A stretch of DNA of 64,000 nt from a virus. The notes below the pieces were generated by a model that worked only from the letters and a program-made list of their open reading frames with translations, did no database searches and was not told the origin of the DNA. The DNA lies in the IMG/VR virus record IMGVR_UViG_3300045988_061615. One strand, given 5' to 3'. Each line of letters opens with the position of its first letter. The first letter of the stretch is position 1. Of this stretch, positions 2,487 to 54,375 are shown one piece after another. The position numbers were made by a program, and so were the translations under genes.

Positions 2487-5400
2487 TGTAATGTCTTTTC
2501 AATTACTATATTGTTGCTTGGATTGGTAGAACCATTACCTCCCACCTTTTTAAGGTCAGTATAAGCTATAGGTACATTATACTTGTAAGCCCAAACCTTA
2601 GTATTATCCTTTAGTTGAAGCTTGTATGATTTACCAAGTATTCTCTCCCTCGAAGCTGTTGTCATAGAAGGAGTCTCAACCTCATCACCACTACCTATAT
2701 TCCATATAATGTAATTAGGATATTGCTGTGCTGAGTTAACCTTTACTGTAGCAGTATTAGTTGTATTGTTCTCAATCTGACTAGATACTGGGTAGTATTC
2801 TAACAACCAAGGAATATTCTTTGCAGGTAATTCCTTATTAGAAGTTAACTTATATCCAGTAGCCTGACACATTACATATCTTACATAATTCAAGCTTGCA
2901 TCAGTGGAGATTTGAACACATTGTCTTTCTCTATCTGGTAAGCTAGTATACCATGAAGGAGTTAAGGAAGTATCGTAAACGATAGGTTCCATTGTCCTAC
3001 TTGGGTTCTCTCTTATATATCTTGAATTGGCATATGTATGTTTGTGACCACATAGGCATAGTTTAAAATCATTATCTTGCATCCATTGGCTGAACCAATA
3101 ACTACCTACTGTATTTAAGTGACTACCACCCCTCTTGATGTTTAGGTCTTTATCATAAGTTCCACTCTCATTTTTCTTTAGATAACTCATAATTAAGTCA
3201 GCCGTAATGATAGTAAATGGAGCTTCGTGACAGAACGCAACCTTCCACTTAATTTTAGCATCAGCTGCGTGTTGTGCCAAATCAGCAGTTGCCCAGTCTT
3301 TTAAGTCATTATATACATTCACACCAGTTATATCTCCGAACACGTCTGTCCTCGCTAATTCAGTGATTTCAGAGTTCATAGACAAGAAATAGGTGTTACC
3401 ATATACGAAACTATAGCAGCAGGGTATGTACACTCCAGCAGACGAAATGGGTACTGTATAAGGGTGTTCAAATGTAAAGAAAAATTCTACATTGGCTGGG
3501 TTAGTTTTACTTTTATCTTCCCCATCCCCTAACGTGTACACATCTACAGGTGTTAAATCATTGTTGCCTACTGAGTACATCTGTTCTGTATCTCTATAGA
3601 TAACATCTCCTCCCTTGTAATAGTCAATCCATTCATTAAATCTATTACCATTCTGAGTTTGGTCTCCAGTATTTAAACACCATTCATATGGATTCTCAGC
3701 TTTGTCAGAGTTGATATACTCTGCACTAACTCTCCACATTTCATACTCTTCTGCATTGAAACCTTGTTGGTCACTTACTTGTAGGAAGTTAAATCCTCTT
3801 TCAATAACCTTGTCCCTATTTCTAAGAGTAAATGACCTTTCCTCAGTCCACGCTCCGTCTCTTCCTACCTTGTAATAATACTTCTGAGTATCAGTAGGTT
3901 CGTCGAAGTCTTTAATGAACTTATGAACTGTAAATGGTGTACCATCTGTAGTTATACTTCTAATCCTATTGTATATTTTATTAGCCCAATTCTTGTGGTT
4001 GGTAGGTCTGTTAGGATTCTGGCTAACGTCTTCTGTATTGAAGTCTTCTTTCTTGAAAGACTCAAACTTATTCTCTGGAGTATATTCTTCCCCATCTTTC
4101 CTTATCCAGATATATTCATCATAATATCCAACTGATACCCAGTTAAAGCATCTAGTCTTATGTGCGTCATGTCCTAATGTACAAGTAACAATGTTAGGAG
4201 CACCCTCAACTAATAGATGTTTATTGAAGAATATATTCTTATTTTGTGATGAGTTCTTAGGAGTGTACTCTTGAATATCAATAGCAGGGTTAATCTTATC
4301 CATATTGATGTAAGTCCAGTCCTTAACATTACTCCTAGCACTCAGAGCCTTAGTAGCTTGCTTAACTGGGTCCATATTATAGTAACGCATTAATAATACA
4401 TTACTTCCCTTAGTAGCTATAGGAGATGCTTCACATGGCATTGACTTATCATTGTAGTTACCTATTCCGACTAAATCTACATACCATTTAATCACTCCAT
4501 TAGTAGTCCAAGGTGCTGTACTATTCATAACAGTAGTCTTGAAGTAATCTGTTGTTTCCTCACTACTAATGTAGAATGCACAGTCGTAACTAAATTTGAT
4601 GCAGTTATCTTTGCTAGACCAAATACTATGAGCTTGAACTCCAGCACCTTCATCCACAGCAATCTCAAGCCTTGTATTATTAAGAGTGTCATCTTTAGTC
4701 CAATACATATCAGGTTCACCAACTCTAATTAGTGTAGTATTGATGTTCTCTACTGAGCATTGAGCACCCTTAATCAAGAATGTGCCTTGAGATTTAAGAG
4801 TACCAATTAGAGGTAATGTAACCCAATCTCCACTATTCCTTTCTGTGTAATGTAAGTATAATCCTTTTAGATTTAAGTCCTTCTTACCTAGGTTACATAG
4901 TTCTACGAAATTGTGAGATACTGGATTATAATCCTTATCCTCAGATGTTCCTCCACAATATACCATATTAACATATATCTTTGGAGAGTCTTTAGAACCA
5001 ACTTCCTCTGGAATAATTGGGAAATAAGGAGTAGTATAATAAATTCCAGTACCTTGAGTCTGAGCATTACCAGCTAAAGTATTCTTATCTAATCTATAAT
5101 CATGTATATCTAACTTGCCATCCTTAACCTGAATAAGGAATGTATTCTCTTTATTCGTCATGTCAGCGAACTCAATACCAATAATCTTGGTTTTAGCTCC
5201 ACTACCACTTCCAATGACTTCGGTTAATATTCCATCCATTGTCTCTGGGTCTGGTCCAGGTCCTGGGTCTTCTCCACCACCTGTGCTACCTATTTTAATT
5301 AATTTATATGTCTTAGGGTCTTTAATCCATAATGTCTGAGTATCATAACACCATAACAATTCTTTCGGTAGGAAATCACCCTTATTAGCCTGCATTTCTG

Positions 5401-6214
5401 CATACGTACCACTTTTAATACATATATGCTTGGCATTAGGTAAATACTCTTCATACTCAGTAGGTTCAGGTGAATCAGCAAGAACTATATCCTTATTAGC
5501 CTCTTGAGTGGCATTATCCTCTTCCTCTGAAGTACCGTAATTAGGCTCCTCATTAGGCATACCATCGTAAGCATATCTCTGATTGTTGGTAAAATCACCC
5601 GAATCTATCTGGCAGTTAAATGCAAACTCTAGCTTCCGTACCTTGTCTTGCAGTACTGATATAACTTTCAATAGGTCTTGAATTACAGTACTACTTGTCA
5701 TATGTTCTTTATTCTCAGAAGTATCTATCCAAATACCTCCTTTATCTTCAGGTGGTGCATCCTGTATGTAGATTTTGGAGAAGGATTCCCAAACGAATCC
5801 ATTAAAGTAACGTATTTCATTAATATCATTAACGAATACTATTTGTCCTTTAATTCTAAGGTCGTCTCTATCAAGTAGTTCCTCTAAGGTCTCAACTACT
5901 ACAATAGACATTCCTCCACCTCCTCCACCTCCTCCACCTCCTTGTACTTTCCATACATTCCACACCCCACTATAGAATTGATACATATGGTTGTCGTCAG
6001 GTGAATTTTTAACGTAACACAGCATACCTTCCTTTAGCTTATTAGTACTAAGGAAGGCTTCCATATCACTCATATTGGTAACTTGGATGTAACCACCACG
6101 TAAGTCATTAACATCTGCTAACGGAAAGTTAGCATTGTTCTTGGGTTTTAATTGACCAATTACCTCAATATATTCATTCATGTGTATAAAAAAATAAAGG
6201 GCTGTGAATAACAC
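2483..6214 (-). CDS. large tail/baseplate-associated protein with poly-Gly linker and a possible C-terminal metallophosphoesterase-like domain
   Basis: 1243-aa ORF. Gly11 tract near the N-terminus (plus 5896-5946). Contains CHEAP(F) and LCGHKHTY, which resemble the GNHE and GHxH motifs of calcineurin-like phosphoesterases. Position within the tail module. Confidence 0.5.
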   Translation of the reverse strand: MLFTALYFFIHMNEYIEVIGQLKPKNNANFPLADVNDLRGGYIQVTNMSDMEAFLSTNKLKEGMLCYVKNSPDDNHMYQFYSGVWNVWKVQGGGGGGGGGGMSIVVVETLEELLDRDDLRIKGQIVFVNDINEIRYFNGFVWESFSKIYIQDAPPEDKGGIWIDTSENKEHMTSSTVIQDLLKVISVLQDKVRKLEFAFNCQIDSGDFTNNQRYAYDGMPNEEPNYGTSEEEDNATQEANKDIVLADSPEPTEYEEYLPNAKHICIKSGTYAEMQANKGDFLPKELLWCYDTQTLWIKDPKTYKLIKIGSTGGGEDPGPGPDPETMDGILTEVIGSGSGAKTKIIGIEFADMTNKENTFLIQVKDGKLDIHDYRLDKNTLAGNAQTQGTGIYYTTPYFPIIPEEVGSKDSPKIYVNMVYCGGTSEDKDYNPVSHNFVELCNLGKKDLNLKGLYLHYTERNSGDWVTLPLIGTLKSQGTFLIKGAQCSVENINTTLIRVGEPDMYWTKDDTLNNTRLEIAVDEGAGVQAHSIWSSKDNCIKFSYDCAFYISSEETTDYFKTTVMNSTAPWTTNGVIKWYVDLVGIGNYNDKSMPCEASPIATKGSNVLLMRYYNMDPVKQATKALSARSNVKDWTYINMDKINPAIDIQEYTPKNSSQNKNIFFNKHLLVEGAPNIVTCTLGHDAHKTRCFNWVSVGYYDEYIWIRKDGEEYTPENKFESFKKEDFNTEDVSQNPNRPTNHKNWANKIYNRIRSITTDGTPFTVHKFIKDFDEPTDTQKYYYKVGRDGAWTEERSFTLRNRDKVIERGFNFLQVSDQQGFNAEEYEMWRVSAEYINSDKAENPYEWCLNTGDQTQNGNRFNEWIDYYKGGDVIYRDTEQMYSVGNNDLTPVDVYTLGDGEDKSKTNPANVEFFFTFEHPYTVPISSAGVYIPCCYSFVYGNTYFLSMNSEITELARTDVFGDITGVNVYNDLKDWATADLAQHAADAKIKWKVAFCHEAPFTIITADLIMSYLKKNESGTYDKDLNIKRGGSHLNTVGSYWFSQWMQDNDFKLCLCGHKHTYANSRYIRENPSRTMEPIVYDTSLTPSWYTSLPDRERQCVQISTDASLNYVRYVMCQATGYKLTSNKELPAKNIPWLLEYYPVSSQIENNTTNTATVKVNSAQQYPNYIIWNIGSGDEVETPSMTTASRERILGKSYKLQLKDNTKVWAYKYNVPIAYTDLKKVGGNGSTNPSNNIVIEKTLQ

Positions 6215-6229
6215 AGCCCTTATTTGTAC

Positions 6230-6682
6230 TTATTCTACAAACAAGCTGTAGATTATTTCAAGAAAATCAGCAGCCTTTAGTTTAGTGCCATTAATTTCTA
6301 CATCATTACCTGAATTTACGTCCACAAGCTCAAAATACTCTTCCTCGGTGAATTTACCATCCCAATCTAACTCTTCATTACTCTTTTCAGTAAGATAGGT
6401 GTCATAGCCATCCTTGATGTCAGCATTCCACTGGTTTAGTTGCGCTGCTTCTTCCTCGTTCTTTCCCTCTTTGGCAGCAAGAGCATCATAACCCTTTGGT
6501 TTAAGATTCTCCACGATAGACTTTAAATCTCTCTCAAAAGCTGACTTAATTTTTGATAACTCAAGTCTCATCGACATAACCTTTACCTTTAAAGTTTTAG
6601 GTAGCTCAGCGTCGTCAGACTTTAATAGAATCTTACTAATAAAATTGTGTTTTACGAATGCATCATTTAACGTCATATTCAT
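6230..6682 (-). CDS. hypothetical protein (structural module)
   Basis: 150-aa ORF tightly packed between tail genes. Confidence 0.5.
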   Translation of the reverse strand: MNMTLNDAFVKHNFISKILLKSDDAELPKTLKVKVMSMRLELSKIKSAFERDLKSIVENLKPKGYDALAAKEGKNEEEAAQLNQWNADIKDGYDTYLTEKSNEELDWDGKFTEEEYFELVDVNSGNDVEINGTKLKAADFLEIIYSLFVE

Positions 6683-12804: not shown

Positions 12805-15690
12805 TTATTCTAGTATTATAGAAGCATTAGTAGTAATGTTATTAACAATTTCCTCTAATGCTGTAAGTTTGTCCATTAATAGTTTACCCTGCGCTGCTGA
12901 TAAGCTCATGTTGGCATCTTCTGTGGTCAGATTGTTTGCTATTGTTGAAAGTATTCTCTTTGTGCAGGTGAACTTGAAAGTCTCCTCCTCACTTTCGTTA
13001 TACTCCAGATTAGTAATCACCTCCAAGTCTTCGTAGTTATTTAAGTGACACATAGTAGTTACACTTACCCTTTTAACTGAATTTATGTCAGTCTGGCTAG
13101 TTCCAACCTTGTTATACACAGCAACATAATTATCAGTATCATATTCTACCACAGAGGCATAAGATGAGAATAAGGATTCCATAAATTCAATAGCATCATC
13201 TCTTACATCAAAAGGATTCTCCAAGTTTAAGATATCGTTATAAATCACTGATTGAGCTGAGTTTAAATCAGTTCTGATAGAATCTACTTCTGACTTGATA
13301 GTAGTATCATTGTAATTCTCCAGACTGTCAACTTTATCCTTATATAGATTAGTAAAGTCATTAGTAGAAAGCCCCTTACCTTCCTCCTTTAACACAAATT
13401 TACTAACATCAGGTATTTCAGACTTTAAAGCATAACCACTTAAATCAACACCAGGTATTGCAGCTATTTGTTGTTGTACCCAAGTTTGTGAAGCTAATCC
13501 TTCAATACTAGGAATACTCGGAGTATTGATAAGGTCATTATAATCTTTAGAGAATAATTCTGACTTATCAGCTTTACTATTCAAGGCAGTCTTTACATTA
13601 CCTATCTCAGTATTGATACCACCTATTGTAGTATTCTGAGCAAGTATAGCATCACTCAGTTCCTTAAACGTAGTATATGATGGGTCAGCACCTTCTAAGA
13701 TTATATCAAACCTTCCATCAGTATATTGCTTAGCTTCTAATAAAGCATTACCAGCAGCACCTGCTGCTTCAGCTCCAAGTTCATCTAATGTATATGTTGG
13801 TTTATTGGGTTGTTTAGCCCATGAGGGAACAGTAGGGTCAGTTTCTACAAACTCAGTTAAATAACCTTTAGCTTCTAACTCTTGTTCAGTAACTAAGTTA
13901 TCTGGTATTGAGTTTATATAGCCCTTGTCATTCTCTAACTGTGATACTCTGGTAGGTATTTCAGTCTTATCTGCCTTACTACTAATATCTGGAATGTCAG
14001 TCTTATTAGCTTTCTTATCTACTTCACTAGATAAGTTAGTTATAGACTTTCTAATTCCAGAGTCATTGTAGTTAGTAAGACCTTGCAGTTTAGCTTTCTC
14101 AGCAGTAGTAAAGCTCTGCTCTGATAAACCCATTCCAACCTGCTTGTCAACCTTGTTGTTCCAACTATCAATATCCTGCTGATTTATGTTCTTAGCAGCA
14201 CTAGCAGCAAATTGAGGCTCTAACTCTTCTGTTAGATAACCTTTAGCTTCTAGTTCCTTATCGGTAACATACTCTTCAGGAACTTCAGTTAGATACTCTG
14301 AGTCATTCTCTAATTGAGAGACTTTAGTGGGTATCTCACTCTTATCAGCTTTACCAGAGACATCTGGAATCTTAGCATCTACTTCCTGCTTAGTATAGTA
14401 GTTATTAAGCTGTATGTCTCCGCCTTCAATAGCTGCAAGTTTATCATCAACCTCATCCTTAGTATATACTGTATGTTTGTCAGCCTTAGCTGCTAATAGT
14501 TCTCGTATAGTTGTAGTATCAATAGTCTCAGGATTATAACCGCTCTGGTCAAGTATCTCTACAGTTGTCTCTCCTAACCCTGCATGAGCACTCTTAAATA
14601 TGTAGTACAGATTACTAAATATCTCCTGTGTTCCAAGTAACTTGAATCCACCTATGACACTACTAACTCCCAGAACTGTGTTAGCCCCATTAGGAATCAT
14701 AACATATATATACTCACCAGCTCCAGCATTTACTGTGTAGACATTATCAATAGTTCTATCTAACTGTGTATAGTCTGGAGAAGTTCCAAAATAATTTGGA
14801 TATTTAATGTCAAATGTAACAACTCTCGTAGCACTAATATCTTCATACTTGTACTTAAGAGTAACTACCATAGATGTAGTCCTATTAGTAAAGATATACT
14901 CTCGCACTTCTGGACTTAGTGTAACGCCATTGATAGATTGCTCAATAACATCCTTATGGTATTCCCAAGTAACCTTTACATCAGTAGGTTCATCTCCATA
15001 ACACATATACTCAGGGTCTAGAGATATAGCCTTGACGTTATCATCAATAGATGCAGCTGCAATTTTAGCATTAACCCATTCAGTAGAGGCAATTCTGTTA
15101 GAATTATCTGTCATCAAGGGCAATGTAGTAGTAGGAGTTCCAGCAAAGCTTGGAGAGAATATATCAGCTTTGTTCTTAAATCTAATTTCTATCTCACATG
15201 CCCATTGAGCGAGCTTGAGGTTAATTTCATCAATAACCTTATTAATGTCAAAGGCTATTGAATCAGTTACAAAGGTATATAAATCTTTTTGATTAGACAA
15301 GTTACCTTTGATGTTTCCCCACTTTAGAGCATATTCATCTGCTATACCAAGATTAATTCTGGCTATAGTTCTCTGATACTCATCAGTTAACTCTGAGAAT
15401 AGATTCTCCTTTTGGAATCCATCATCCCCGCCAGTACACCCATAATATTTAGAAGTATCACAATCATCCTTAATACAGATGTGGTCTACTCCTTCCTCTT
15501 CTATTTTTACACTGTCTATCTTGTCTATTGTAATAACACCATAGTCAGCACAAATTCCCTCTACTTCTTCTTTCTCTATAACACCATCAATTATTTTAGT
15601 ATCTGGCTTTATGTTAGAAATAGAATGTGGGTAGTCAGGTAAAATGGGAGTTTCTTGTTCTTGTTCGTCAAGACGTATAAACTCTGCCAT
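12805..15690 (-). CDS. tail fibre protein with phage-fibre repeats and internal tandem repeat
   Basis: 961-aa ORF. Carries LSEQSFTTAEKAKLQGL-type repeats that resemble Pfam Phage_fiber_2. Duplicated KADK(S/T)EIPT(K/R)VSQLEND..ELEAKGYLTE segment. Confidence 0.65.
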   Translation of the reverse strand: MAEFIRLDEQEQETPILPDYPHSISNIKPDTKIIDGVIEKEEVEGICADYGVITIDKIDSVKIEEEGVDHICIKDDCDTSKYYGCTGGDDGFQKENLFSELTDEYQRTIARINLGIADEYALKWGNIKGNLSNQKDLYTFVTDSIAFDINKVIDEINLKLAQWACEIEIRFKNKADIFSPSFAGTPTTTLPLMTDNSNRIASTEWVNAKIAAASIDDNVKAISLDPEYMCYGDEPTDVKVTWEYHKDVIEQSINGVTLSPEVREYIFTNRTTSMVVTLKYKYEDISATRVVTFDIKYPNYFGTSPDYTQLDRTIDNVYTVNAGAGEYIYVMIPNGANTVLGVSSVIGGFKLLGTQEIFSNLYYIFKSAHAGLGETTVEILDQSGYNPETIDTTTIRELLAAKADKHTVYTKDEVDDKLAAIEGGDIQLNNYYTKQEVDAKIPDVSGKADKSEIPTKVSQLENDSEYLTEVPEEYVTDKELEAKGYLTEELEPQFAASAAKNINQQDIDSWNNKVDKQVGMGLSEQSFTTAEKAKLQGLTNYNDSGIRKSITNLSSEVDKKANKTDIPDISSKADKTEIPTRVSQLENDKGYINSIPDNLVTEQELEAKGYLTEFVETDPTVPSWAKQPNKPTYTLDELGAEAAGAAGNALLEAKQYTDGRFDIILEGADPSYTTFKELSDAILAQNTTIGGINTEIGNVKTALNSKADKSELFSKDYNDLINTPSIPSIEGLASQTWVQQQIAAIPGVDLSGYALKSEIPDVSKFVLKEEGKGLSTNDFTNLYKDKVDSLENYNDTTIKSEVDSIRTDLNSAQSVIYNDILNLENPFDVRDDAIEFMESLFSSYASVVEYDTDNYVAVYNKVGTSQTDINSVKRVSVTTMCHLNNYEDLEVITNLEYNESEEETFKFTCTKRILSTIANNLTTEDANMSLSAAQGKLLMDKLTALEEIVNNITTNASIILE

Positions 15691-17635: not shown

Positions 17636-18013
17636 TTATACGTTGAAGTCAGCTCTAACTTTAGTTTTGATTTCTCCTACTAGTGTAAGATAGTCTAGGT
17701 ATTTCTGTCTATCAGTTTGATTATCAGATAATCCTAATACAATACTGTTGGAGCTGTTGATTAAATCAAACTCTTCATCTTGGTCTACATACTGCCTAAT
17801 AATAGCTTTAATGCATTCTTTATGGTCTGGTTGACCATGTAGATGAACCTGAACATATGTCCACCTTGTTTCTTGTGTTACATCTTCTGTTTCTGGGTCT
17901 ATAACATCAACCACCTTTGACTTAATGTCATAGTTATAGTAATATGTGCCATTACCTAGTTTCTCTATTGAGTTAGGTTGTACATTCATTTCTATTCTTC
18001 TTGGTTCTAACAT
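17636..18013 (-). CDS. hypothetical protein downstream of DGR RT
   Basis: 125-aa ORF that overlaps the 3' end of the RT gene. It is not basic, so it is probably not an Avd accessory protein. Confidence 0.4.
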   Translation of the reverse strand: MLEPRRIEMNVQPNSIEKLGNGTYYYNYDIKSKVVDVIDPETEDVTQETRWTYVQVHLHGQPDHKECIKAIIRQYVDQDEEFDLINSSNSIVLGLSDNQTDRQKYLDYLTLVGEIKTKVRADFNV

Positions 18014-19208
18014 AAGGTCTTATTTTAAAATTTACTGGGAATGAATATCTGGTTAGAGAGTAGAATAGGTCCCTACTCTTGCTCTCAAAGTAATAAGATT
18101 TGTTATTGTACACAAAGTTAACCCTAAAACACTTGCTATAGCTAACCATATCTACAACATGAATATACTTGTTATAAAATCTTGAAATATTAGACTTCTT
18201 CCCATCCCAATTAGAGAACCTTAAACCTGTATCTCTTTGAATCTTTCTTAATAGATTCTTAGAATTACAGAACTTTAGCCAACCAAAGTATGATTGCATT
18301 CTCCTTCTCAATTCCTGTCTGTCAATCTTACCAGACTGATATTTCCTAACAAGTCTGAATAGTCTAATCTTAATTGACTTCCTTAGTAATACATGGGTAT
18401 GATAGAACCTATAACCTACAAAGTCTATACCTCTATCATCTACTGGGAATATTTGGTAATTTGATTTTAACCTTAAATTTAGAACCTCCTTCAAGTACAT
18501 CTTAATTGCTATAAGTACTGTTCTCAAGAAGTTCTTATCACTGCTGAGAATTACAATATCATCAGCATACCTGAAATAGAATTTACATTTCAACTCTTCC
18601 TTGACCCAATGGTCAAAGTAAGCTAAGTACAGATTAGCGAAGAACTGCGATAAGTAATTACCTATAGGAACTCTGTCGGCAGAATATATGATTTCAATAA
18701 GCAATAGTAAAAGACCTTGGTCTTTAATCTTCTTCTTAATGATTTCACATAGTATGTCGTGATTAACAGATGGGTAAAACTTTCTGACATCCATCTTAAG
18801 ACAGTACATTGTCTCCTCTGGATGTTTAGTTAATGCCGCTCTTAGGTCATAAGCTACATTATGAATTCCTCTATCTTTGATGCAAGAGTAAGTTTGCTTA
18901 ATAAATATTTTAGTCCAAATAGGTTCCATCACGTTCATTATAGCGTGATGTGTTATCCTATCTGGATAGTATGGTAGTCTAAATATCAACCTTTCTTTAG
19001 GTTCGTATATCTTAAACGTACTATACTCAGAGGTTTCATATACTAAGTCTTTTAATTGCTCAGATAACCTCTCATTCTCCTCCTGTCTATTCCTGTCATG
19101 CTTGAGGATTCCCCATCTAGCTGACTTATGCTTTCTAGCCTTATCATCAGCTTTCTCAATATTCTCTATATCATAAACCTTCTCATGTAAATAACCTATA
19201 CGTTTCAA
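17973..19208 (-). CDS. DGR-type reverse transcriptase
   Basis: 411-aa ORF with the RT motif RYADDIVILS (YADD box). Carries the DGR-typical PIGNYLSQFFANLYL motif. Lies immediately downstream of a TR/VR pair. Confidence 0.9.
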   Translation of the reverse strand: MKRIGYLHEKVYDIENIEKADDKARKHKSARWGILKHDRNRQEENERLSEQLKDLVYETSEYSTFKIYEPKERLIFRLPYYPDRITHHAIMNVMEPIWTKIFIKQTYSCIKDRGIHNVAYDLRAALTKHPEETMYCLKMDVRKFYPSVNHDILCEIIKKKIKDQGLLLLLIEIIYSADRVPIGNYLSQFFANLYLAYFDHWVKEELKCKFYFRYADDIVILSSDKNFLRTVLIAIKMYLKEVLNLRLKSNYQIFPVDDRGIDFVGYRFYHTHVLLRKSIKIRLFRLVRKYQSGKIDRQELRRRMQSYFGWLKFCNSKNLLRKIQRDTGLRFSNWDGKKSNISRFYNKYIHVVDMVSYSKCFRVNFVYNNKSYYFESKSRDLFYSLTRYSFPVNFKIRPYVRTKKNRNECTT

Positions 19209-19354
19209 GTCTTATATATTTATTATGGAAGCTTTCGAGACTTAACCTACTAACACCCAGTTATTAAATACTACGTTGTCTTTTGCCAAGAGGCAAGGGT
19301 ACTATTTAGACTGTAAAATGAAAACCAAATTACCTAAATAAAGAAATATATAAT

Positions 19355-19457
19355 AAGCCTACATTCGTATTAGCATTACTGACTCCATTATTAGAATTGA
19401 AGTAGCTAAGACTAGCATTACTACCATTATTAGCGTTGCTGCTAACGATGAGTGTTT
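19355..19457 (-). repeat. DGR template repeat (TR)
   Basis: Non-coding copy of the VR, about 103 bp. Differs from the VR at 19 positions, and every one is an adenine on the minus (coding) strand in the TR. Confidence 0.85.
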
Positions 19458-19540
19458 TATAGTAAATATAACTTGTCCAGCACCAACAGTATGTAGGTAA
19501 ATAGTACCCTAATCTCGTATTCTATCTATTGTATATTTTG

Positions 19541-21571
19541 TTAAACTGCCTTATTTAGTGTTCTGAAGCCCACATTCGTATCAGCATTACCGACCCCATA
19601 ATGAGAATCGAAGTAGCCAAGACCAGCATTACCACCAGTATGAGCGCGGCCGCCAACGACGAGCGTTCTTAATGCTGTGCTTGAAGCATTGCAGTAGTGA
19701 TAGTCACACATGTAAGTAGTAGCAGAACCGCCAACTACTGAAGGTATGATTTCACCAGTTTCTCCAAGGTCAAAGTCCTTTGTCCATCCATCAGCTGCTA
19801 CTTCTGTACCAGCAACAGTCATCTTACCTTTAGCAGTATTATCGTCTCCGAATGCTGTTGGGTCAGTAGTAGTGTACACACTACTTGGTTGATTAGCTTC
19901 TGTTCTCTCTAGGATAATGCCATCCAAGTTAGTCCAGATGTCTCCGAATGGATTATCGAATCCTCTCCATCTTGGAACCTTGAATGTTTTAGATGCTACT
20001 GTCGTAGACTCATTTATTACTGTTTCAGGAATAACTAAATCCTTAACTCCAGTAAAGTTACCAATATCATTACAGTATCCGCATGGTGTTAATGGGTAAT
20101 AACCATTATAGTTATTCCAGTTAGTTCCATCCCATGTAGTAACACCATCTCCTAGTCCACCTTGATGATAACCATCAGCTGTTAAGTCAGCAGTGTAAGC
20201 CTTCTGTGAGTTTAGTGTAGCATACTCGATAACCCAAGCCCAGTAGAATATCCACTTGTAATATTCATAGCATAGCATTTCTGAACCAGCATTAGTAGCA
20301 TAAGTTCTCATGTTTGCTCTTGAGATATTAGTTCTTGGCTTACCTAAATCACTCCTAAACTTATCTGTCTCCAAATATGTGTCATTAGCTGTTCTGTTAC
20401 CTCCACCCCTGAACTGAGTAGTGGTATTAACAACTGATACAGCTTTAGGAGTTGCGGATACAGTAGTATCAACAGTGCTTCTATAAGCATCTACTAACAT
20501 TTCTGGAATCTCAATCCACGTATCATCCATTTTAATAGTAGACATTCTAACCCATCTCTTAGTACCTTCAACTCCAGACTTACCATAGAACTTAGGAATG
20601 TGTACCCTTACAGTACCATCAGTTCCATCAAGTACTGAATCACTTCCGTCAGCTTTCTTGGACCAGTCATTAGGGTCTAGGTAATAATTAATCGTAGCTC
20701 CGTCAGCTACACAACCTTTATACTGAGATTGTACTGGTAATGACTTATGTAGTAATGGATTACCAATTCTAGTTAGTGTTGGGTCTGCTACTGTAGAATC
20801 CCATTCAACTCCGTAGGAGTAAATGTCTTCTAATCCAGTGTAATCAATTCCTCCTCCGCCTTGGTTATCTTGCCATTCAGCTGTTCCATCACCAGTATTT
20901 ACTAGGATTTGTCCTTTAGCTCCTCCAGCTGGAATATGTTTGTTACCTGCTGTAGTAGGGTGTACATAGTTGTTAGCATTAGCTGCCACACCTTGTAGTT
21001 TAGTCTTCTCAGCTGTTGTATAATCTTCTGTAGATAATTGTTTACCTTCAACCTTATCCACCTTATTAGCTATCTTTGCTACTTCTTGCTTCTCAGCTGT
21101 TGTGTAGTCGTTAGTAGATAACTGCTTACCGTCTACCTTATCAACTTTTAGAGCAATAGCAGCTGTGCTTCTTGCCTCAGAATCCTCAATAGCTTTATCT
21201 ACTTGTGTCTTGTTGTAGTAACCTGTTAGGTCTACCTCTACGTGCTTATTACCTAAGAACTCCCATCCAGTCTTCTCACTAGTAACCATCCATATATATT
21301 CATCATATACATCGTTGGCTCTAGAGCCTTCATTAGGAACCATGTAAATGGTATTGGGATTACCCTTAGCTGGTAGTTCTGTAACAACAAGAACTTTACC
21401 ACCTGCATCAGCTATTGCATCAGTTACCCACTGTTCTGTAGCTAAACCTTCAATTACCTTATTAACAGTAGTTGACTTATTAGCCCCATTCTGAACGATA
21501 GGGATTAACTCATCACCAGCCAGTGTCGTAGCAGGGGTCATTTGAGAGATTTTAATGTCAGTTGCTGCCAT
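19541..21571 (-). CDS. DGR target protein: tail-fibre-like receptor-binding protein with C-terminal variable (C-type-lectin-like) region
   Basis: 676-aa ORF. Carries GKQLSTNDYTTAEK..KL phage-fibre repeats. The VR sits at its C-terminus. Confidence 0.8.
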   Translation of the reverse strand: MAATDIKISQMTPATTLAGDELIPIVQNGANKSTTVNKVIEGLATEQWVTDAIADAGGKVLVVTELPAKGNPNTIYMVPNEGSRANDVYDEYIWMVTSEKTGWEFLGNKHVEVDLTGYYNKTQVDKAIEDSEARSTAAIALKVDKVDGKQLSTNDYTTAEKQEVAKIANKVDKVEGKQLSTEDYTTAEKTKLQGVAANANNYVHPTTAGNKHIPAGGAKGQILVNTGDGTAEWQDNQGGGGIDYTGLEDIYSYGVEWDSTVADPTLTRIGNPLLHKSLPVQSQYKGCVADGATINYYLDPNDWSKKADGSDSVLDGTDGTVRVHIPKFYGKSGVEGTKRWVRMSTIKMDDTWIEIPEMLVDAYRSTVDTTVSATPKAVSVVNTTTQFRGGGNRTANDTYLETDKFRSDLGKPRTNISRANMRTYATNAGSEMLCYEYYKWIFYWAWVIEYATLNSQKAYTADLTADGYHQGGLGDGVTTWDGTNWNNYNGYYPLTPCGYCNDIGNFTGVKDLVIPETVINESTTVASKTFKVPRWRGFDNPFGDIWTNLDGIILERTEANQPSSVYTTTDPTAFGDDNTAKGKMTVAGTEVAADGWTKDFDLGETGEIIPSVVGGSATTYMCDYHYCNASSTALRTLVVGGRAHTGGNAGLGYFDSHYGVGNADTNVGFRTLNKAV
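19565..19667 (-). repeat. DGR variable repeat (VR) at 3' end of target gene
   Basis: About 103 bp aligned with the TR at a 210-bp offset. Mismatches are restricted to TR adenines (A to G/T/C). Lies inside the last 43 codons of the 676-aa ORF. Confidence 0.85.
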
Positions 21572-48901: not shown

Positions 48902-48975
48902 AGAGATATAGTTCAGTGGTAGAACAGCTAAAGTCAATCTTTAGAAGAACATCAGTTCGAATCTGGTTATCTCTA
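48902..48975 (+). tRNA. noncanonical class-I tRNA, anticodon CAA (identity unclear)
   Basis: Acceptor AGAGATA/TATCTCT. D-arm GTTC-AGTGGTA-GAAC. Anticodon arm CTAAA-GTCAATC-TTTAG. T-arm ATCAG-TTCGAAT-CTGGT. 2 nt at position 26 and a 6-nt variable loop. Confidence 0.45.
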
Positions 48976-49078
48976 CACCATTTTATTAATATGATTCTTT
49001 CAACATATGCAGTGTCATTTCTATCTCGACTCATAGTCATTATTACGAGTTAAAGTATCTGCAATTGTTGAATAACTA

Positions 49079-49114
49079 CTAAGCTCATCGGTTCGAGAGA
49101 ATATGTGAGCTTAG
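49079..49114 (+). repeat. conserved-loop hairpin, copy 1 (loop TCGGTTCGAGAGAATATG)
   Basis: 9-bp stem CTAAGCTCA/TGAGCTTAG. Member of a four-copy family with the same loop consensus and different stems. Confidence 0.55.
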
Positions 49115-49225
49115 TTTAATACCGAGCAAACTTCTATCGTATTTAATACATATTAACTTTTACATGTGGGGAAGATTCATTACCTTTGCACTCACAATTC
49201 ACAGTTAATATGGATTGTGTGATTC

Positions 49226-49309
49226 GGGCACGTAACCGGTAATTGGTAGCCGCGTAGACTGTAAATCTACTCCTTAATTGGACTGGAGGTTCGAGTCCTC
49301 CCGGGCCCA
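49226..49309 (+). tRNA. tRNA-Tyr (GTA), type II
   Basis: Acceptor GGGCACG/CGGGCCC with one A.G mismatch. Anticodon arm GTAGA-CTGTAAA-TCTAC. Long variable arm. T-arm GGAGG-TTCGAGT-CCTCC. Confidence 0.6.
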
Positions 49310-49362
49310 CTCACACTGCGATAATTAAATACAATATCTGTTGAGGTCAAACTCGACAAACC

Positions 49363-49390
49363 CTTCTATGGTTCGAGAGAATAGTAGAAG
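49363..49390 (+). repeat. conserved-loop hairpin, copy 2 (loop TGGTTCGAGAGAATAG)
   Basis: 6-bp stem CTTCTA/TAGAAG. Confidence 0.55.
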
Positions 49391-49396
49391 TAAACT

Positions 49397-49468
49397 GCGG
49401 GATTCGTATAATGGTTATTATAACAGCCTTCCAAGCTGAAGATGACAGTTCAATTCTGTTATCCCGCT
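49397..49468 (+). tRNA. tRNA-Gly (TCC)
   Basis: Acceptor GCGGGAT/ATCCCGC. Anticodon loop CTTCCAA. T-arm GACAG-TTCAATT-CTGTT. Confidence 0.7.
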
Positions 49469-51044
49469 CATTATTAATAATAGATTAGATTATGAAAGAG
49501 ACATCATTTAAGGCAGGTGTTATTGGTGGATTATGTGGAGTATTTACCTTCTTGGCATTATTTGCAACCACAAGTAAAGCATCAATTAATGAGTCTGCTG
49601 CTACTAATGGAGATTATAAAATCAACAGAGTGCAGTATGAATTTATTAACGAACTAACCATTTATAAGGTATCAGGTCCTGGTATTCCAGGTATTAAGTA
49701 TGTGCTTAGAGATTCCGAGAAAGGTGGTTTATGTGTATTAAATCCATGAGTGAACACTGTCTTATTAAGAAGAATACTCCAGAACTTCGTAAGAAACTAG
49801 AGGATGCTGGGTTAAGTGTGTGTATATGTACTACATTTGAGGATGCTGATTGGCTTAGTTGCTGGGGTTCTCATATGTCATATGATGTACATGGTGTGTA
49901 TCCGGATGACGTGGACGATTTGTCTAAAGAAGCCTATCTGGAGATGTATCTCAAGGAAACGAATCCGATTATATGTGAATCGGATGATGAGTTTATTAAC
50001 ATGTGTAAACAAATTAAAGGGAAATGATTATGCGGTAGATTACTTACAAGCCACCATAAGATAGTTGATTATTAATTAAGGCAATTTATTTATTAACTTA
50101 TTAACAATTAACTATCATGGCAACAATTAAACAATTTAAACAAGAAATCGCGAATTTAGTAAAAGCACAGAAAGCAGCTAAGAATATTAATGACTGCTCA
50201 TCAGTTTATTACAACAGAGGAAGATTACATGCAATGTATGTAGCTTATTACATATTAAAGCATAAACTAATCGGAGAAGCTATGGATGAGTATCTCGCTA
50301 AAGTTATCAAAGAATGGAAATCACTTGAAACTCAAGGTTGGTGTGGTTATTCTAAGATGTATAGTGGAGAGAAGTATTTCCGAGAAAGAGTTGATTCACT
50401 GATTGATACATATTCTGATGAAGAGATTGTATGTGCTGATAGACCAGAAGCTTGATGCAGTTTATGGTTGTGTACAAGGAGGTCATGCAGTAGCGCAGTG
50501 GTTATTAGAACATCCTAAGCAGGATTGGAATAATAACTACTTAATCTACTTATATGCTGACTTGGACAAATGGAAAGTAAGACTGGACTTAGTTAATAAG
50601 GACTATTCTTCATTCTATGAACCAGACCTTGGCAATCAATTAACAGCAATCGCATTACAAGATGACGGTCGCATGTTCAAGAAACTTAAATTAGTAAGAG
50701 AATGATATACAAACGAGATTATTATGTCAGTATAGGTGACGAACAGGTAATTATTACTAAGAACGCCATTATGCCATATAATGTAATGGAGCCTAGAAAC
50801 AAATACTTTTATAAAGTTGGAGATAAGGTTTTAACTCCGTTCGGGATACAAACTATTAAGGACATTATAAAGGATTATAGTTCTCAACCAGGTCATGAAT
50901 GGATTATCCTAGTAGAGGAGAATGGCAATCAGTATAAGCCGTGTGAGTTAATTGGCATAGTAGTCAAGGAACTTACACTTGAACAGTGGAATCAAATTAT
51001 CGAATAGTTGATGAGTTGTGGGTAATCTCGTAAAACCCTCTGTC

Positions 51045-51116
51045 GCCCCATTACTTCAGTGGTAGAAGAGCAAATTCTAAACTTGTATGGCGTTGGTTCG
51101 AGTCCAACATGGGGCA
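51045..51116 (+). tRNA. suppressor tRNA, anticodon CTA (reads UAG)
   Basis: Acceptor GCCCCAT/ATGGGGC. D-arm CTTC-AGTGGTA-GAAG. Anticodon arm GCAAA-TTCTAAA-CTTGT. T-arm GTTGG-TTCGAGT-CCAAC. Confidence 0.7.
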
Positions 51117-51118
51117 CT

Positions 51119-51197
51119 TGCGGAGGAATGAAACGGATATATAAATCATACTAGTCTCATAAGCTAGTTATATTGGGTTCGACTCCCATCTCCGCAA
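51119..51197 (+). tRNA. tRNA-Met/Ile2 (CAT) with enlarged D-loop
   Basis: Acceptor TGCGGAG/CTCCGCA. D-stem ATGA/TCAT with a 14-nt loop. Anticodon arm CTAGT-CTCATAA-GCTAG. T-loop TTCGACT. Confidence 0.5.
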
Positions 51198-51297
51198 CTA
51201 CAATCATTGTACATTTGCATTTTCAGAATGTTAAGAAGACACACAGCAATTTCCTGTATGTTGGCATAAGTAAATGAATCTATTGTCTTCTGATGAT

Positions 51298-51370
51298 GGG
51301 TGTATAACTCAGGTGGTAGAGTAACACGCTGATAACGTGTAAGTCCTTGGTTCAAGTCCAAGTACACCCA
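51298..51370 (+). tRNA. tRNA-Ile (GAT)
   Basis: Acceptor GGGTGTA/TACACCC. D-arm ACTC-AGGTGGTA-GAGT. Anticodon arm ACACG-CTGATAA-CGTGT. T-arm CTTGG-TTCAAGT-CCAAG. Confidence 0.85.
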
Positions 51371-51472
51371 CAATACAACAATTTTCAATAGCTTTGAATA
51401 AGAAGTCTTACGGCACGAAAGAAAGTGTTTCATATTTTATGATTTTAATTAAACTAAGAGACTTCTGTAGTC

Positions 51473-51545
51473 CGGGATGTAGTTCAGTAGATAGAATGCG
51501 TGGTTTGGGACCACGAGGTCGCTGGTTTGAATCCAGTCATCCCGA
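51473..51545 (+). tRNA. tRNA-Pro (TGG)
   Basis: Acceptor CGGGATG/CATCCCG. Anticodon arm CGTGG-TTTGGGA-CCACG. T-arm GCTGG-TTTGAAT-CCAGT. Confidence 0.85.
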
Positions 51546-51600
51546 CCCCCTGTAGCATCCAAGAGAGGATGCTGATAATCCCATAATAGCAAATATGGAC

Positions 51601-51630
51601 AACTACTCAGTTCGTGAGAATAGAGTAGTT
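51601..51630 (+). repeat. conserved-loop hairpin, copy 3 (loop AGTTCGTGAGAATA)
   Basis: 8-bp stem AACTACTC/GAGTAGTT. Confidence 0.55.
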
Positions 51631-51770
51631 TTAATAAGAACCATAATTAACACAATAATATATAGTTTCACTAAACAATCATCAAATCAACTCAACAATC
51701 AACCCAACAACTTTTAATTTATGATTTGATTAACCTGTTTCATAGTTAAGCCCATAAGTCGTATTGATAT

Positions 51771-51842
51771 GTGGGCTTGCCCGAGAGGTTTAGGGGCTGG
51801 TCTGCAAAACCAGTTAGGACGGTTCGATTCCGTCAGCCCACT
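51771..51842 (+). tRNA. tRNA-Cys (GCA)
   Basis: Acceptor GTGGGCT/AGCCCAC. Anticodon arm CTGGT-CTGCAAA-ACCAG. T-arm GACGG-TTCGATT-CCGTC. Confidence 0.8.
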
Positions 51843-51925
51843 CTCGATTTAGTGAAACATAAGAAGGCGTACAGCACTAATCATTGTACAGTTTACATGT
51901 TTTTGATAACGCGCCTTCTGTGGAT

Positions 51926-51997
51926 GATTCCGGAGCATGTATGGATATGCTATAGACTTTTAATCTATAGAACAGGGTTCAAGTCCCTGCGGAATCA
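51926..51997 (+). tRNA. tRNA-Lys (TTT)
   Basis: Acceptor GATTCCG/CGGAATC. D-arm GCAT..ATGC. Anticodon arm ATAGA-CTTTTAA-TCTAT. T-arm CAGGG-TTCAAGT-CCCTG. Confidence 0.85.
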
Positions 51998-52037
51998 CAT
52001 ATGTACTAAGATTGTACATGATGTCAAAGAACGAGTT

Positions 52038-52070
52038 TAACCACTCAGTCTGTGAAGATAGAGTGGTTTA
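52038..52070 (+). repeat. conserved-loop hairpin, copy 4 (loop AGTCTGTGAAGATA)
   Basis: 10-bp stem TAAACCACTC/GAGTGGTTTA. Confidence 0.5.
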
Positions 52071-52102
52071 TTTAGATTATTAATTTAAAATCAGATACAT
52101 TT

Positions 52103-52246
52103 ATGAGTAAGATTATTGGAGTATTGTTAGTAATTGGTTCTGTTATAGGAACAGTTGCTTGTATAGCTCAACATCAATTTAATCCATTCACTGGAGTATT
52201 GTTGTTGCTAGTATTTTGCTTTGGTTGCTGTTTAGCGATGAGCTAG
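52103..52246 (+). CDS. micro-ORF encoding a 47-aa two-transmembrane-helix peptide
   Basis: MSKIIGVLLVIGSVIGTVACIAQHQFNPFTGVLLLLVFCFGCCLAMS. Lies between tRNA genes. Confidence 0.3.
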   Translation: MSKIIGVLLVIGSVIGTVACIAQHQFNPFTGVLLLLVFCFGCCLAMS

Positions 52247-52422
52247 ATTATTTATTTATTGACTAAAACTGATGTATTATGAGACTATTTAAGTTAATTA
52301 AGAAAGCAGTTCGTTGGTATTTTAGAATAGCTGCAAATAGCTATGCTTGGACACCAACAGGAGTAGTTCCTTACCATAGGGATTAACTCCGATGCAATCG
52401 GGATAGGTCAATTAAACATTAT

Positions 52423-52494
52423 GGCAAGTTAGCTCAGTGGTAGAGCAGTTGGCTGTTAACCAATTGGTCGCAGGTTCGAGTCCTGCACTTGCCG
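52423..52494 (+). tRNA. tRNA-Asn (GTT)
   Basis: Acceptor GGCAAGT/ACTTGCC. D-arm GCTC-AGTGGTA-GAGC. Anticodon arm GTTGG-CTGTTAA-CCAAT. T-arm GCAGG-TTCGAGT-CCTGC. Confidence 0.85.
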
Positions 52495-52608
52495 CATTAT
52501 TAACATTAAATTATAAGATTATGCATAGTTTTGGTGCTTACATTGTGGGAGCTATAGTGCTAGTAGTATTGTATTACATCTTTAAAGATTCCACAATCTA
52601 AAATTGAT

Positions 52609-52683
52609 GCGTCCTTAGCTCAATCGGTAGAGCCCCTGTCTCCAAAACTGGGTGTGTTGCATGTTCGAGTCGTGCAGGGCGTG
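52609..52683 (+). tRNA. tRNA-Trp (CCA)
   Basis: Acceptor GCGTCCT/AGGGCGT with two G.U pairs. Anticodon loop CTCCAAA with one T.T mismatch in the stem. T-arm GCATG-TTCGAGT-CGTGC. 7-nt variable loop. Confidence 0.6.
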
Positions 52684-52729
52684 CATGGTAGAAAATAGAT
52701 AGGTTATCTATTAATTAGAATTACTAAAT

Positions 52730-53137
52730 GTGAAGTGTTCCGTATGTGGAAAGCAATTAAGTGCTGGTAATCAATCTGGATTATGTCAAGAATGTTACCG
52801 TAAGAAAGTAAACGAAGATAAGATTGCAAAGTGGAAAGAGACTGGAGATACTGGATGTAAAGTTTCAACTACGCTTAGAAATTGTATCAGAGATTATATT
52901 GCAGATAAACAGGAACACAAGTGTGCTATATGTGGTATAGATAGTGTATGGCAGGGCAAGCCCCTGAACTTTATACTTGACCATATAAACGGAGATGCTT
53001 CTAACAACTGGGAACATAATTTACGATTAATATGTCCTAACTGTGATTCACAGTTGGACACTTATAAGTCTAAGAATAAGAACAGTGCTAGAACACATAG
53101 AAAGAAATATCAAGGAAGTATGCCGGAGCCAGGTTGA
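52730..53137 (+). CDS. HNH endonuclease with N-terminal zinc ribbon; 3' end reads into tRNA-Ser
   Basis: 135-aa ORF. LDHINGDASNNWEHNLRLICPNCDS is a classic HNH core. The last 8 codons are encoded by the 5' part of tRNA-Ser(TGA). Confidence 0.65.
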   Translation: MKCSVCGKQLSAGNQSGLCQECYRKKVNEDKIAKWKETGDTGCKVSTTLRNCIRDYIADKQEHKCAICGIDSVWQGKPLNFILDHINGDASNNWEHNLRLICPNCDSQLDTYKSKNKNSARTHRKKYQGSMPEPG

Positions 53138-53200
53138 ACGGAACGGACTTGAAATCCGTAGGCCCTTCGGGGTCCGGGGGTTCGAATCCCTCTGCTTCCT
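53114..53200 (+). tRNA. tRNA-Ser (TGA), type II
   Basis: Acceptor GGAAGTA/TGCTTCC. D-arm carries the ATGCCGGAG signature. Anticodon arm ACGGA-CTTGAAA-TCCGT. Long variable arm GGCCC..GGGTC. T-arm GGGGG-TTCGAAT-CCCTC. Confidence 0.8.
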
Positions 53201-53219
53201 CAACTAATTTGAATGTACT

Positions 53220-53543
53220 ATGAAGTTTAAAGTGAAATTAAGGAGAGTGTCTACGTTAAGTAGAAACCAAATTTGTAGAGTGTACGAATCTGGAATGCGA
53301 GAAATGGTAAAACGTCCCACATTAGTTAGAGTCCTTCTTAAGGATTACAAAACTAAAGAAGATGTTAATGCTTTACTTGAGCAATTAAGCGAAGCAAGTA
53401 GAGCCGCTGAACAGGATTTATATGCAGAGTACCCAAAGTTGCCCAGAAAGGCTAAGAAGGAACTCAAGAAAAGGTTGAATGCAGTCAATAATGCCTATTG
53501 TGTTGGTATTACTTTATTGCTGGCTGAATCAGATGGCTTATAA
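53220..53543 (+). CDS. hypothetical protein
   Basis: 107-aa ORF. Confidence 0.45.
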   Translation: MKFKVKLRRVSTLSRNQICRVYESGMREMVKRPTLVRVLLKDYKTKEDVNALLEQLSEASRAAEQDLYAEYPKLPRKAKKELKKRLNAVNNAYCVGITLLLAESDGL

Positions 53544-53826
53544 ATTCATACCTACTCGATATGTAGACAATAACTCCAAGTTGTTGGCAAGAATTTACTT
53601 AAATAGACAAAATTCTCGCCGAGTGGTATTACGAGGATACTATGATTTTGATAAAGAGAAGTTTTACATTTCATCTATATCAAAGAAGGCTAATACAAGG
53701 TCTGTGATGAAGTTCTTACTAAAGACTATAGAATGTAGTAGATTTCATTGGGAGTATTCAGGTAACTATGATGATAAGCTCTATCAAGAGTGGTTAAAGG
53801 AACATGCAGTATTTAATAGATTGTAA
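53479..53826 (+). CDS. hypothetical protein
   Basis: 115-aa ORF. The true start is probably an internal ATG, because the ORF overlaps the previous gene. Confidence 0.4.
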   Translation: MQSIMPIVLVLLYCWLNQMAYKFIPTRYVDNNSKLLARIYLNRQNSRRVVLRGYYDFDKEKFYISSISKKANTRSVMKFLLKTIECSRFHWEYSGNYDDKLYQEWLKEHAVFNRL

Positions 53827-53919
53827 AATTATCGTATGAAAGGAATTAATTTAACAGGATTGGACATGAAGAAGTTTGTTGGAACCGGCTACAACCCGTC
53901 TCAAGACATTATTAACACT

Positions 53920-54226
53920 AATGGTAGAGACGATGGAAGAACTAAGAACGGAGAGACTGAAGGATTCACTAATCCAAAGAAACAAAAGGTGGAGGAACCT
54001 AAAGAAAGACCAGAAGTATATTACTAGGATTAAACTCCACGCTGCCTACTGGTATAATCCAGATAAAACGGCAAGAGGTAGACATTGGACAGAATTATAT
54101 AATTCTAAATATACGTTTGCCTATAAAACAACCAGCACTCCTTGTAATTGTCCTATATGTAAAGGAGAACGCTATAATAGGAGACAGTTTAAGAAAGAGA
54201 CAAGAGAATTACTTAATCTAGAATAA
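53920..54226 (+). CDS. basic zinc-ribbon protein (CNCPICKG)
   Basis: Frame of track ORF 53876..54226, taken from the first ATG. Overlaps the alternative-frame ORF 53836..54027, so one of the two is probably spurious. Confidence 0.35.
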
Positions 54227-54296
54227 CTGAATGGGTAATATAAGAAGGCATCAGCACTTTTACTGTGTCATGTAGTTCAATTTGCCTTCTGATGAT

Positions 54297-54369
<73 letters not shown>

Positions 54370-54375
54370 CTAATA

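Follow-up and report, generated by a model that had tools for sequence, protein, structure and literature searches.

A probably active diversity-generating retroelement without a recognizable Avd gene in a phage resembling the large crAss-like phages of the gut

Introduction

Diversity-generating retroelements (DGRs) let gut phages retarget their receptor-binding proteins while the rest of the genome stays unchanged, and crAss-like phages belong to the most abundant viruses of the human gut. The viral record IMGVR_UViG_3300045988_061615 of the IMG/VR database, of which a stretch of 64,000 nucleotides (one strand, referred to as the window) was analyzed, raises the question whether a reverse transcriptase (RT), a non-coding template repeat (TR), a variable repeat (VR) and a tail-fibre-like gene, all lying together on the minus strand, form a functional DGR, and how such an element could operate with no Avd gene evident in its vicinity. 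The answer favored here, with a probability of roughly 0.9, is that the locus represents a functional Avd-less DGR of the order target-VR-TR-RT, carried by a large gut crAss-like phage most like the Zeta group. The element is complete and probably active.

This kind of cassette has already been published for crAss-like phages (PMC7290462; PMC12386605), the first example being that of crAssphage LMMB (Intestiviridae, genus I; Morozova et al. 2020; PMC7290462), and close relatives are found by the thousands in public data. The locus provides a clean, apparently active example with thousands of natural variants, useful for the study of host-range dynamics. Modest additions beyond the cited papers are a covarying helix that brackets the TR, an extra domain of the RT, and a near-deterministic conversion of AG to GG; all three bear on the function of Avd-less DGRs, and they may aid the development of smaller DGR-based mutagenesis tools.

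Template and variable repeats

All coordinates are positions in the window, and the alignment of TR and VR was recomputed on the minus (coding) strand. Three co-oriented minus-strand features make up the cassette: an open reading frame (ORF) of 676 aa, a non-coding gap of 332 nt, which extends from the target stop to the RT start and contains the TR, and an ORF of 411 aa. The parts are as follows:

19541..21571, minus strand: target gene, tail-fibre-like, 676 aa, with N-terminal fibre repeats and a C-terminal receptor-binding module
19566..19669, minus strand: VR, codons 635-669 of the target, ungapped against the TR, with 19 A-only differences
19355..19458, minus strand: TR, non-coding, 104 nt, 36 of them adenines, almost unchanged across 19 relatives
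17973..19208, minus strand: DGR reverse transcriptase, 411 aa, TTG start at 19206-19208, assigned by PDB, Pfam and motif matches

A repeat search of the region returned a single strong direct repeat with a spacing of 211, and over the 104 nt the offset between TR and VR is constant at 211, with no gaps. All 19 mismatches between the two copies fall on adenines of the TR, comprising 14 A>G, 4 A>C and 1 A>T changes; with 36 adenines in 104 TR bases, the hypergeometric chance of placing 19 out of 19 mismatches on adenines amounts to 2.9e-11. The number of 19 mismatches, all at TR adenines, had been obtained in the initial annotation from an alignment by hand, and it stands unchanged in the recomputed, ungapped one. 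The same annotation had the TR coordinates right and placed the VR at 19565-19667, off by one base from the recomputed 19566-19669; the order target-VR-TR-RT and the location of the VR inside the C-terminal end of the target are as it had claimed. The codons of the TR are largely AAT, AAC and AGY, and 15 of the 19 changes in the VR affect codon positions 1 or 2. A second VR was not found in the window by an adenine-tolerant scan of both strands.

The ends of the repeat pair deserve separate mention. Beyond the last mismatch only GGCUU is common to TR and VR, the homology coming to a stop 5 nt further on. The outermost A/G differences, at TR positions 2, 6 and 99 (19457, 19453 and 19360), are the same in all relatives examined. 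At the 3' end, the outermost difference shifts among TR positions 99, 100 and 101 depending on the lineage, and in every case the TR carries A and the VR G, 6 nt from the end. This constant difference could play the part of an IMH/IMH* difference (IMH, initiation of mutagenic homing), keeping the TR itself from becoming a homing target. The end adenines (positions 2, 6 and 99-101), fixed as G in the VRs, may lie outside the tract that is really transferred.

Natural variation and activity

With the target protein as query, 80 related loci were retrieved from IMG/VR, and in most of them an A-only TR/VR pair occurs with the same spacing. Activity was assessed in the subset of 19 loci with a TR identical to that of the window in at least 101 of 104 positions. 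Within this subset all 19 VRs are distinct, compared with only 8 TR variants of 3 changes or fewer each. Positions that are adenine in the TR are variable in the VR in 28 out of 36 cases, with a mean entropy of 1.06 bit, as opposed to 10 out of 68 non-adenine positions (0.07 bit). The non-adenine changes in the VRs, at positions 13, 21, 81, 84 and 93, copy the change present in the TR of their own locus; mirrored in this way in the cognate TR, they constitute a signature of information transfer from TR to VR. On the protein level, 38 natural variants of 676 aa carry 0.99 bit per site within residues 635-669 versus 0.017 elsewhere, the variation being concentrated at 13 residues that derive from A-containing TR codons. 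Hypervariability at the VR, the check proposed in the initial annotation, is thereby documented with related public sequences, namely the 19 loci and the 38 protein variants. Ongoing mutagenic retrohoming appears evident for the lineage, as read from the sequences of relatives rather than from the individual genome. The TR of the window is of full length and identical to the TRs of relatives L003 and L022.

The closest IMG/VR relative, L002 (IMGVR_UViG_3300045988_025321), has a target 98% and an RT 99.8% identical to those of the window. Its TR (approximately 5312-5373) has suffered an internal deletion of 42 nt between two GTAATGCTA repeats, and the L002 cassette has probably lost the ability to rewrite its VR in full.

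Adenines preceding guanine

A survey of 54 distinct TR/VR pairs revealed that TR adenines located before a G are G in the VR in 91% of cases. At the interior synonymous sites, TR positions 12, 15, 45 and 75, the count is 79 G out of 81, and because these sites are synonymous, selection on the protein cannot act there. The AG-to-GG outcome in natural VRs looks almost deterministic, and the AGY (Ser) codons of the TR appear as GGY (Gly) in essentially every VR. Possibly, an A before G is nearly always read as G, in which case the AGY codons of the TR would serve as fixed codons for glycine. For the Bordetella RT (bRT) it was reported that a G at the +1 position biases misincorporation toward A>G, with a lowered error rate (bioRxiv 10.1101/2025.03.24.644984). 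The direction is the same in both systems, but the frequency observed here is far above that expected from the error rate reported for bRT.

The reverse transcriptase

The RT had been assigned in the initial annotation on account of a YADD box and a DGR-specific motif, an assignment borne out by the presence of RYADDIVILS and PIGNYLSQFFANLYL in the ORF and by the closest solved relative. The enzyme carries, next to the YADD catalytic box, the sequence IGNYLSQ, which corresponds to the DGR signature GxxxSQ (motif 4, [ILV]GxxxSQ), and it matches Pfam RVT_1 at 1.7e-17. Its best match among PDB sequences is bRT of the Bordetella phage DGR (8ub7, E 4.5e-46), a full-length match that pairs residues 7-328 with 8-324 of bRT; in the same search, RTs of group II introns and retrons came up at about 1e-14. 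The closest RT from a named phage is that of crAssphage LMMB, with 56.9% identity over residues 1-411. Translation from the TTG start yields the N-terminus MKRIG, which is common to the homologues, and at least 7990 homologues exist in public data.

The RT is about 85 aa longer than bRT, with the extra segment located at the C-terminus:

17976..18224, minus strand: basic C-terminal extension of the RT, aa 329-411, pI (isoelectric point) 10.0; the alignment with bRT stops at aa 328

This extension is retained in 27 homologues, down to 58% identity, as well as in crAssphage LMMB. Matches of many other crAss RTs to the RT of the window end at around residue 325. A comparison of profiles with the PDB pointed to the mitoribosomal protein bS21m as a relative of the extension; the match was marginal (E 0.007) and not reliable, and nothing else convincing emerged.

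The target protein

The target matches the PHROG family phrog_5302, 'tail protein', at 3.3e-89, and tail-fibre PHROGs match its repeat region. The fibre repeats reported in the initial annotation are present in the forms GKQLSTNDYTTAEK and GKQLSTEDYTTAEK. The number of homologues in public data is at least 6744. The C-terminal part behaves as a unit of its own:

19544..20533, minus strand: last 330 aa of the target (aa 347-676), with a predicted C-type-lectin (CLec, FGE-like) fold as in DGR variable proteins

In a search of 50%-identity representatives these last 330 aa turned out to be a widespread module (1347 clusters at E ≤1e-3), which is always C-terminal, in proteins of 258-1708 aa. By sequence, the CLec fold was not detected in the target C-terminus with Pfam, NCBIfam, phmmer or a family profile against the PDB, and Pfam scans of 68 diverse relatives of the C-terminus gave no CLec match either. 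An AlphaFold2 model of the full-length target, computed with 24 close homologues, had a predicted local distance difference test score (pLDDT) of 27. When the C-terminal module was modeled with the 68 representatives at 50% identity as alignment, the pLDDT was 96.5 and the predicted template-modelling score (pTM) 0.93. Because of this high-confidence prediction, display of the variable region on a C-type-lectin fold is supported, at the level of a model, and so is the C-type-lectin-like tip proposed before.

A second fibre-like protein of 961 aa (12805-15690, minus strand) is encoded downstream of the DGR and contains no VR. Its repeats, of the GKGLSTNDFT type (Pfam Phage_fiber_rpt, 3.2e-07), are of the same kind as those in the target. 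The RT gene and ORFs of 125, 264 and 326 aa lie between the two fibre genes.

RNA structure around the template repeat

The sequences on both sides of the TR can be folded into a defined structure, the elements of which are listed from 5' to 3' on the transcript:

19498..19509, minus strand: 5' arm of the bracketing helix, GGGUACUAUUUA, located 39 nt upstream of the TR and perfectly complementary to 19297-19308 over 12 bp
19297..19308, minus strand: 3' arm of the bracketing helix, UAAAUAGUACCC, in the TR-RT spacer; 97% of helix cells paired
19283..19296, minus strand: hairpin UUGCC-UCUU-GGCAA followed by unpaired AAAAG, conserved, directly after the helix
19207..19300, minus strand: RT-17-like motif (Rfam RF03020), full-length match at 28.5 bits

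RNAalifold recovers the bracketing helix across 19 distinct relatives, with 8 of the 12 pairs changed on both sides, a degree of covariation that was reached by none of 500 shuffles. The proposed structure is 98% paired, versus 28-57% in slid controls. Cognate arms form 11.5 of 12 pairs versus 9.4 of 12 for non-cognate arms, and none of 2000 shuffled upstream sequences reached 12. Furthermore, the helix is kept despite unrelated arm sequences in LMMB (14/14 pairs), in the crAss-like phage cr7_1 and in relatives L081 and L083. The hairpin occurs in compensatory forms as well, with UUACC/GGUAA in LMMB and UAACC/GGUUA in L081.

The motifs RT-1 to RT-19 adjoin RT genes, RT-10 being the spacer of the Bordetella phage BPP-1 (PMC5737381). 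None of 11 related loci reached the gathering score of RT-17, the homologous spacer of cr7_1 coming to 38.6 bits, and the spacer RNA of the window is a relative of the RT-17 motif, not a scored member.

A pairing of spacer UUUACA with UGUAGG in the TR was considered and dropped, as RNAduplex gave no consistent register over 11 lineages. A conserved AU-only stretch, UUAUUAUAUAUU, directly follows the TR (19346-19355, minus strand) and is complementary to the conserved AAAUAUAUAA (19212-19221, minus strand) before the RT start codon. Both stretches are invariant in most lineages, so covariation cannot speak on this possible second long-range pairing. A scan for sigma-70 promoters and terminators was uninformative (24 found, 18.6 expected), the model being probably inapplicable to Bacteroidota-type hosts.

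Proposed mechanism and alternative readings

The following sequence of events is proposed. A transcript would cover the TR together with the 146-nt spacer that precedes the RT gene, and in its folded form the 12-bp helix would join the spacer to sequence lying just 5' of the TR, with the short hairpin, the unpaired adenosines and the RT-17-like stem-loop coming after the helix. The cDNA would then replace the VR, that is, the last 35 variable-region codons of the presumed C-type-lectin receptor-binding tip of the fibre. With the TR remaining unchanged, the phage could resample about a dozen ligand-contacting residues, thereby tracking changes of the host surface. We infer that the spacer primes cDNA synthesis in cis and that synthesis terminates at the bracketing helix; the homing mechanism and independence from Avd are likewise proposed.

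Several points weigh against a functional, Avd-less DGR. Activity is deduced from relatives and not from the exact genome. Neither a GC-rich IMH (14-mer) nor a stable DNA hairpin of the BPP-1 style (z-score +0.7) was found 3' of the VR. The 5' arm of the bracketing helix was picked by searching for complementarity, so that its pairing is somewhat inflated, with non-cognate arms still at 9.4/12. The RT-17 match of 28.5 bits stays under the Rfam gathering score of 40.4. A conserved primer duplex between TR and spacer was not found, and neither was a priming nucleotide. Finally, BPP-1 Avd, used in tblastn and phmmer searches against all six-frame ORFs, identified no Avd in the window, and these searches covered 64 kb of a genome of maybe about 186 kb.

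The last point leads to the alternative that fares best, a canonical Avd-dependent DGR with an avd gene either outside the 64-kb window or too divergent to be recognized. The Bordetella enzyme bRT depends on Avd for its activity, and most DGRs have Avd-like proteins (bioRxiv 10.1101/2023.10.23.563531); among the Zeta phages, most of which are without avd, Lera and ct1yV3 do encode Avd (PMC12386605), and related contigs of about 185-190 kb imply that much of the genome lies beyond the window. On the other hand, avd sits inside the cassette in known DGRs, and none was found in this one: besides the tblastn and phmmer searches, Pfam scans of 19 ORFs around it were empty for the Avd family, in keeping with the initial annotation, which had seen no Avd. 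The published relatives of the RT (LMMB and the lineage 3 cassettes, and most Zeta phages) likewise do without avd, and the RT family possesses a conserved basic C-terminal domain that is absent in bRT. The crAss cassettes of 'lineage 3' are described as target-TR-RT with no avd and with VRs of the CLec3 type (PMC7290462), and Avd-less DGRs are an accepted subclass. Dependence on a hidden Avd is considered unlikely for this locus.

How an Avd-less element may work is a matter of a more tentative suggestion. The RT family could form a self-sufficient, Avd-independent DGR ribonucleoprotein, in which the basic C-terminal domain and the RT-17-type spacer RNA take over the roles of Avd; this is a possibility, albeit a doubtful one. 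The roles so replaced may be template positioning and processivity, with the long-range helix clamping both ends of the TR. If true, the locus would describe a compact targeted mutagenesis module of one protein and one RNA.

A second alternative regards the element as a fossil, active in an ancestor and silent in the window genome, with the VR differences inherited. Degenerate cassettes are indeed common in crAss-like phages, 73% being incomplete in genus I (PMC7290462); the closest relative L002 bears the 42-nt deletion in its TR, and relatives L020, L033 and L049 have truncated RT matches. The cassette of the window itself displays none of this decay: the RT ORF is unbroken and retains its catalytic motifs, the TR is of full length and shared with L003 and L022, and the helix of the spacer RNA is perfect (12/12 pairs). 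Moreover, an inactive pair would gather ordinary substitutions, and non-adenine mismatches in the VR number 0. A silent fossil is therefore quite improbable, and a functional Avd-less DGR remains the preferred reading.

That the RT belongs to another retroelement (a retron, a group II intron or an Abi/DRT defence system), with the repeat having arisen independently by duplication of the fibre gene's 3' end, is effectively refuted: some database records label homologues 'retron-type' and NCBIfam models for group II intron, retron and Drt3a do give sub-threshold matches, but these score far below the cut-offs, bRT leads among solved relatives by an E-value margin of more than 30 orders of magnitude, the enzyme carries the DGR-specific GxxxSQ motif, and the A-only pattern, with a chance of about 3e-11, recurs in dozens of independent loci.

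Comparison with known systems

The DGR of crAssphage LMMB, classified as 'lineage 3' of Wu et al. 2018 (PMC7290462), has the same arrangement of target gene, VR, TR and RT, no avd, and a TR of about 35 codons. The C-terminal region of its target is homologous to that of the window (30% identity over 480 aa), and its RT is alike over the whole 411 aa, the C-terminal extension included. The layout of the spacer RNA is also the same, with a bracketing helix of 14/14 pairs, a UUACC/GGUAA hairpin and a UGGUAG...CGAA motif. The two phages differ in their backbone: the terminase of the window is only about 30% identical to that of classical crAss phages, the window has an array of 19 tRNAs, and related contigs are of about 186 kb. 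The target of the window is longer than that of LMMB and has a different N-terminal fibre part.

Among the Zeta crAss-like phages, DGRs of the architecture target-VR-TR-RT were reported in 18 of 43 genomes (PMC12386605). Like the window, they have the order TFP-VR-TR-RT (TFP, tail-fibre protein), mostly without Avd, and fibres with a C-terminal C-type-lectin domain. Their RTs contain the GxxxSQ motif, reach up to 414 aa and have variable C-termini, compared with 411 aa for the RT of the window. The structure of the spacer RNA and the tracking of TR-to-VR transfer on the population level are given here, and not in the Zeta paper (PMC12386605).

With the BPP-1 element of Bordetella, the window shares the RT clade, adenine-specific mutagenesis and the preference for A>G before G. 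The cryo-electron microscopy structure of the Bordetella ribonucleoprotein revealed that sequence upstream of the TR forms a duplex with the spacer, after which come a short stem-loop and unpaired adenosines; this arrangement, termed "cPRT Stop", is required for cDNA synthesis and sets its boundary (bioRxiv 10.1101/2023.10.23.563531). The succession of helix, hairpin and AAAAG in the window resembles this "cPRT Stop". There are clear differences, however. Only BPP-1 has Avd between VR and TR; the upstream arm of the helix is non-coding in the window, in contrast to BPP-1, where it is the 3' end of avd; the RT of the window has an extra basic domain of about 85 aa that bRT does not have; BPP-1 features a GC-rich IMH and a hairpin 3' of the VR, the window neither; and the BPP-1 spacer is Rfam RT-10, whereas that of the window is RT-17-like.

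The Rfam motif RT-17 (RF03020; Weinberg et al. 2017) is matched over its positions 1-95 and, as in the window, lies directly upstream of an RT gene. Elements in common are the CCUUGCCUCUUGGCAAAA hairpin and a core of UAGUAG...UCGAAA. The Rfam model does not contain the long-range helix that reaches 5' of the TR in the window. As for the target, TaqVP, the variable protein of a Thermus aquaticus DGR (PDB 5VF4), is 18% identical, a relationship undetectable by sequence search; unlike TaqVP, the CLec domain of the target is fused to the N-terminus of a phage fibre.

The ORF downstream of the reverse transcriptase

The RT gene is followed by a small ORF that was described as acidic in the initial annotation, in agreement with the calculated pI:

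17636..18013, minus strand: acidic ORF of 125 aa, pI 4.8, phrog_11557, overlapping the RT stop by 41 nt

Of 72 related loci, 69 have this ORF after the RT, compared with just 25-29 that retain other neighbours; it is found behind the RT in one distant contig as well. A role as replacement of Avd was considered and is unsupported: in the IAS virus a homologue is present without an RT, right behind a short ORF with a VR-like C-terminus, and crAssphage LMMB has the RT and not the 125-aa ORF. Because the IAS virus and LMMB decouple the ORF from the RT, the protein may be better understood as a partner of the fibre module, and it could be, for example, a chaperone of that module rather than a component of the DGR.

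The phage

The named relatives of the terminase are Crassvirales phages, at only about 30% identity; its two closest records are unannotated 'Bacteriophage sp.' sequences, the best at 58.7%. The portal matches P22_portal weakly. The window contains 19 tRNA genes in an array at 48902-61563 (plus strand), including one with a CTA anticodon at 51045-51117 (an amber suppressor, labeled tRNA-Pyl by ARAGORN). Despite this tRNA, the standard bacterial code gives normal, uninterrupted reading of the long structural ORFs in the window. Related contigs cluster at about 185-190 kb. Zeta crAss-like phages were described as having genomes 155-190 kb in size, with blocks of tRNAs and, in one clade, a CTA suppressor tRNA without recoding (PMC12386605). 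In its tRNA and DGR features and in the contig size of its relatives, the host genome of the element fits this published description, and it resembles a large gut crAss-like phage, most like the Zeta group.

A nucleotide search of a phage collection returned a single distant match, cr7_1, at 69.8% identity; none of the 43 genomes of PMC12386605 was a close nucleotide match in the collection searched. This match is the RefSeq crAss-like phage cr7_1 (Suoliviridae; NC_055895.1, locus L001), which contains a homologous cassette at 4850-6477 that is unannotated as a DGR. Its TR (6210-6312) and VR (6375-6477) differ by 28 A-only mismatches. TAG codons occur in frame in the genes of cr7_1, the tail protein having 14, which agrees with TAG recoding, and because of such in-frame TAG codons the coding sequence of its RT is annotated about 95 codons too short.

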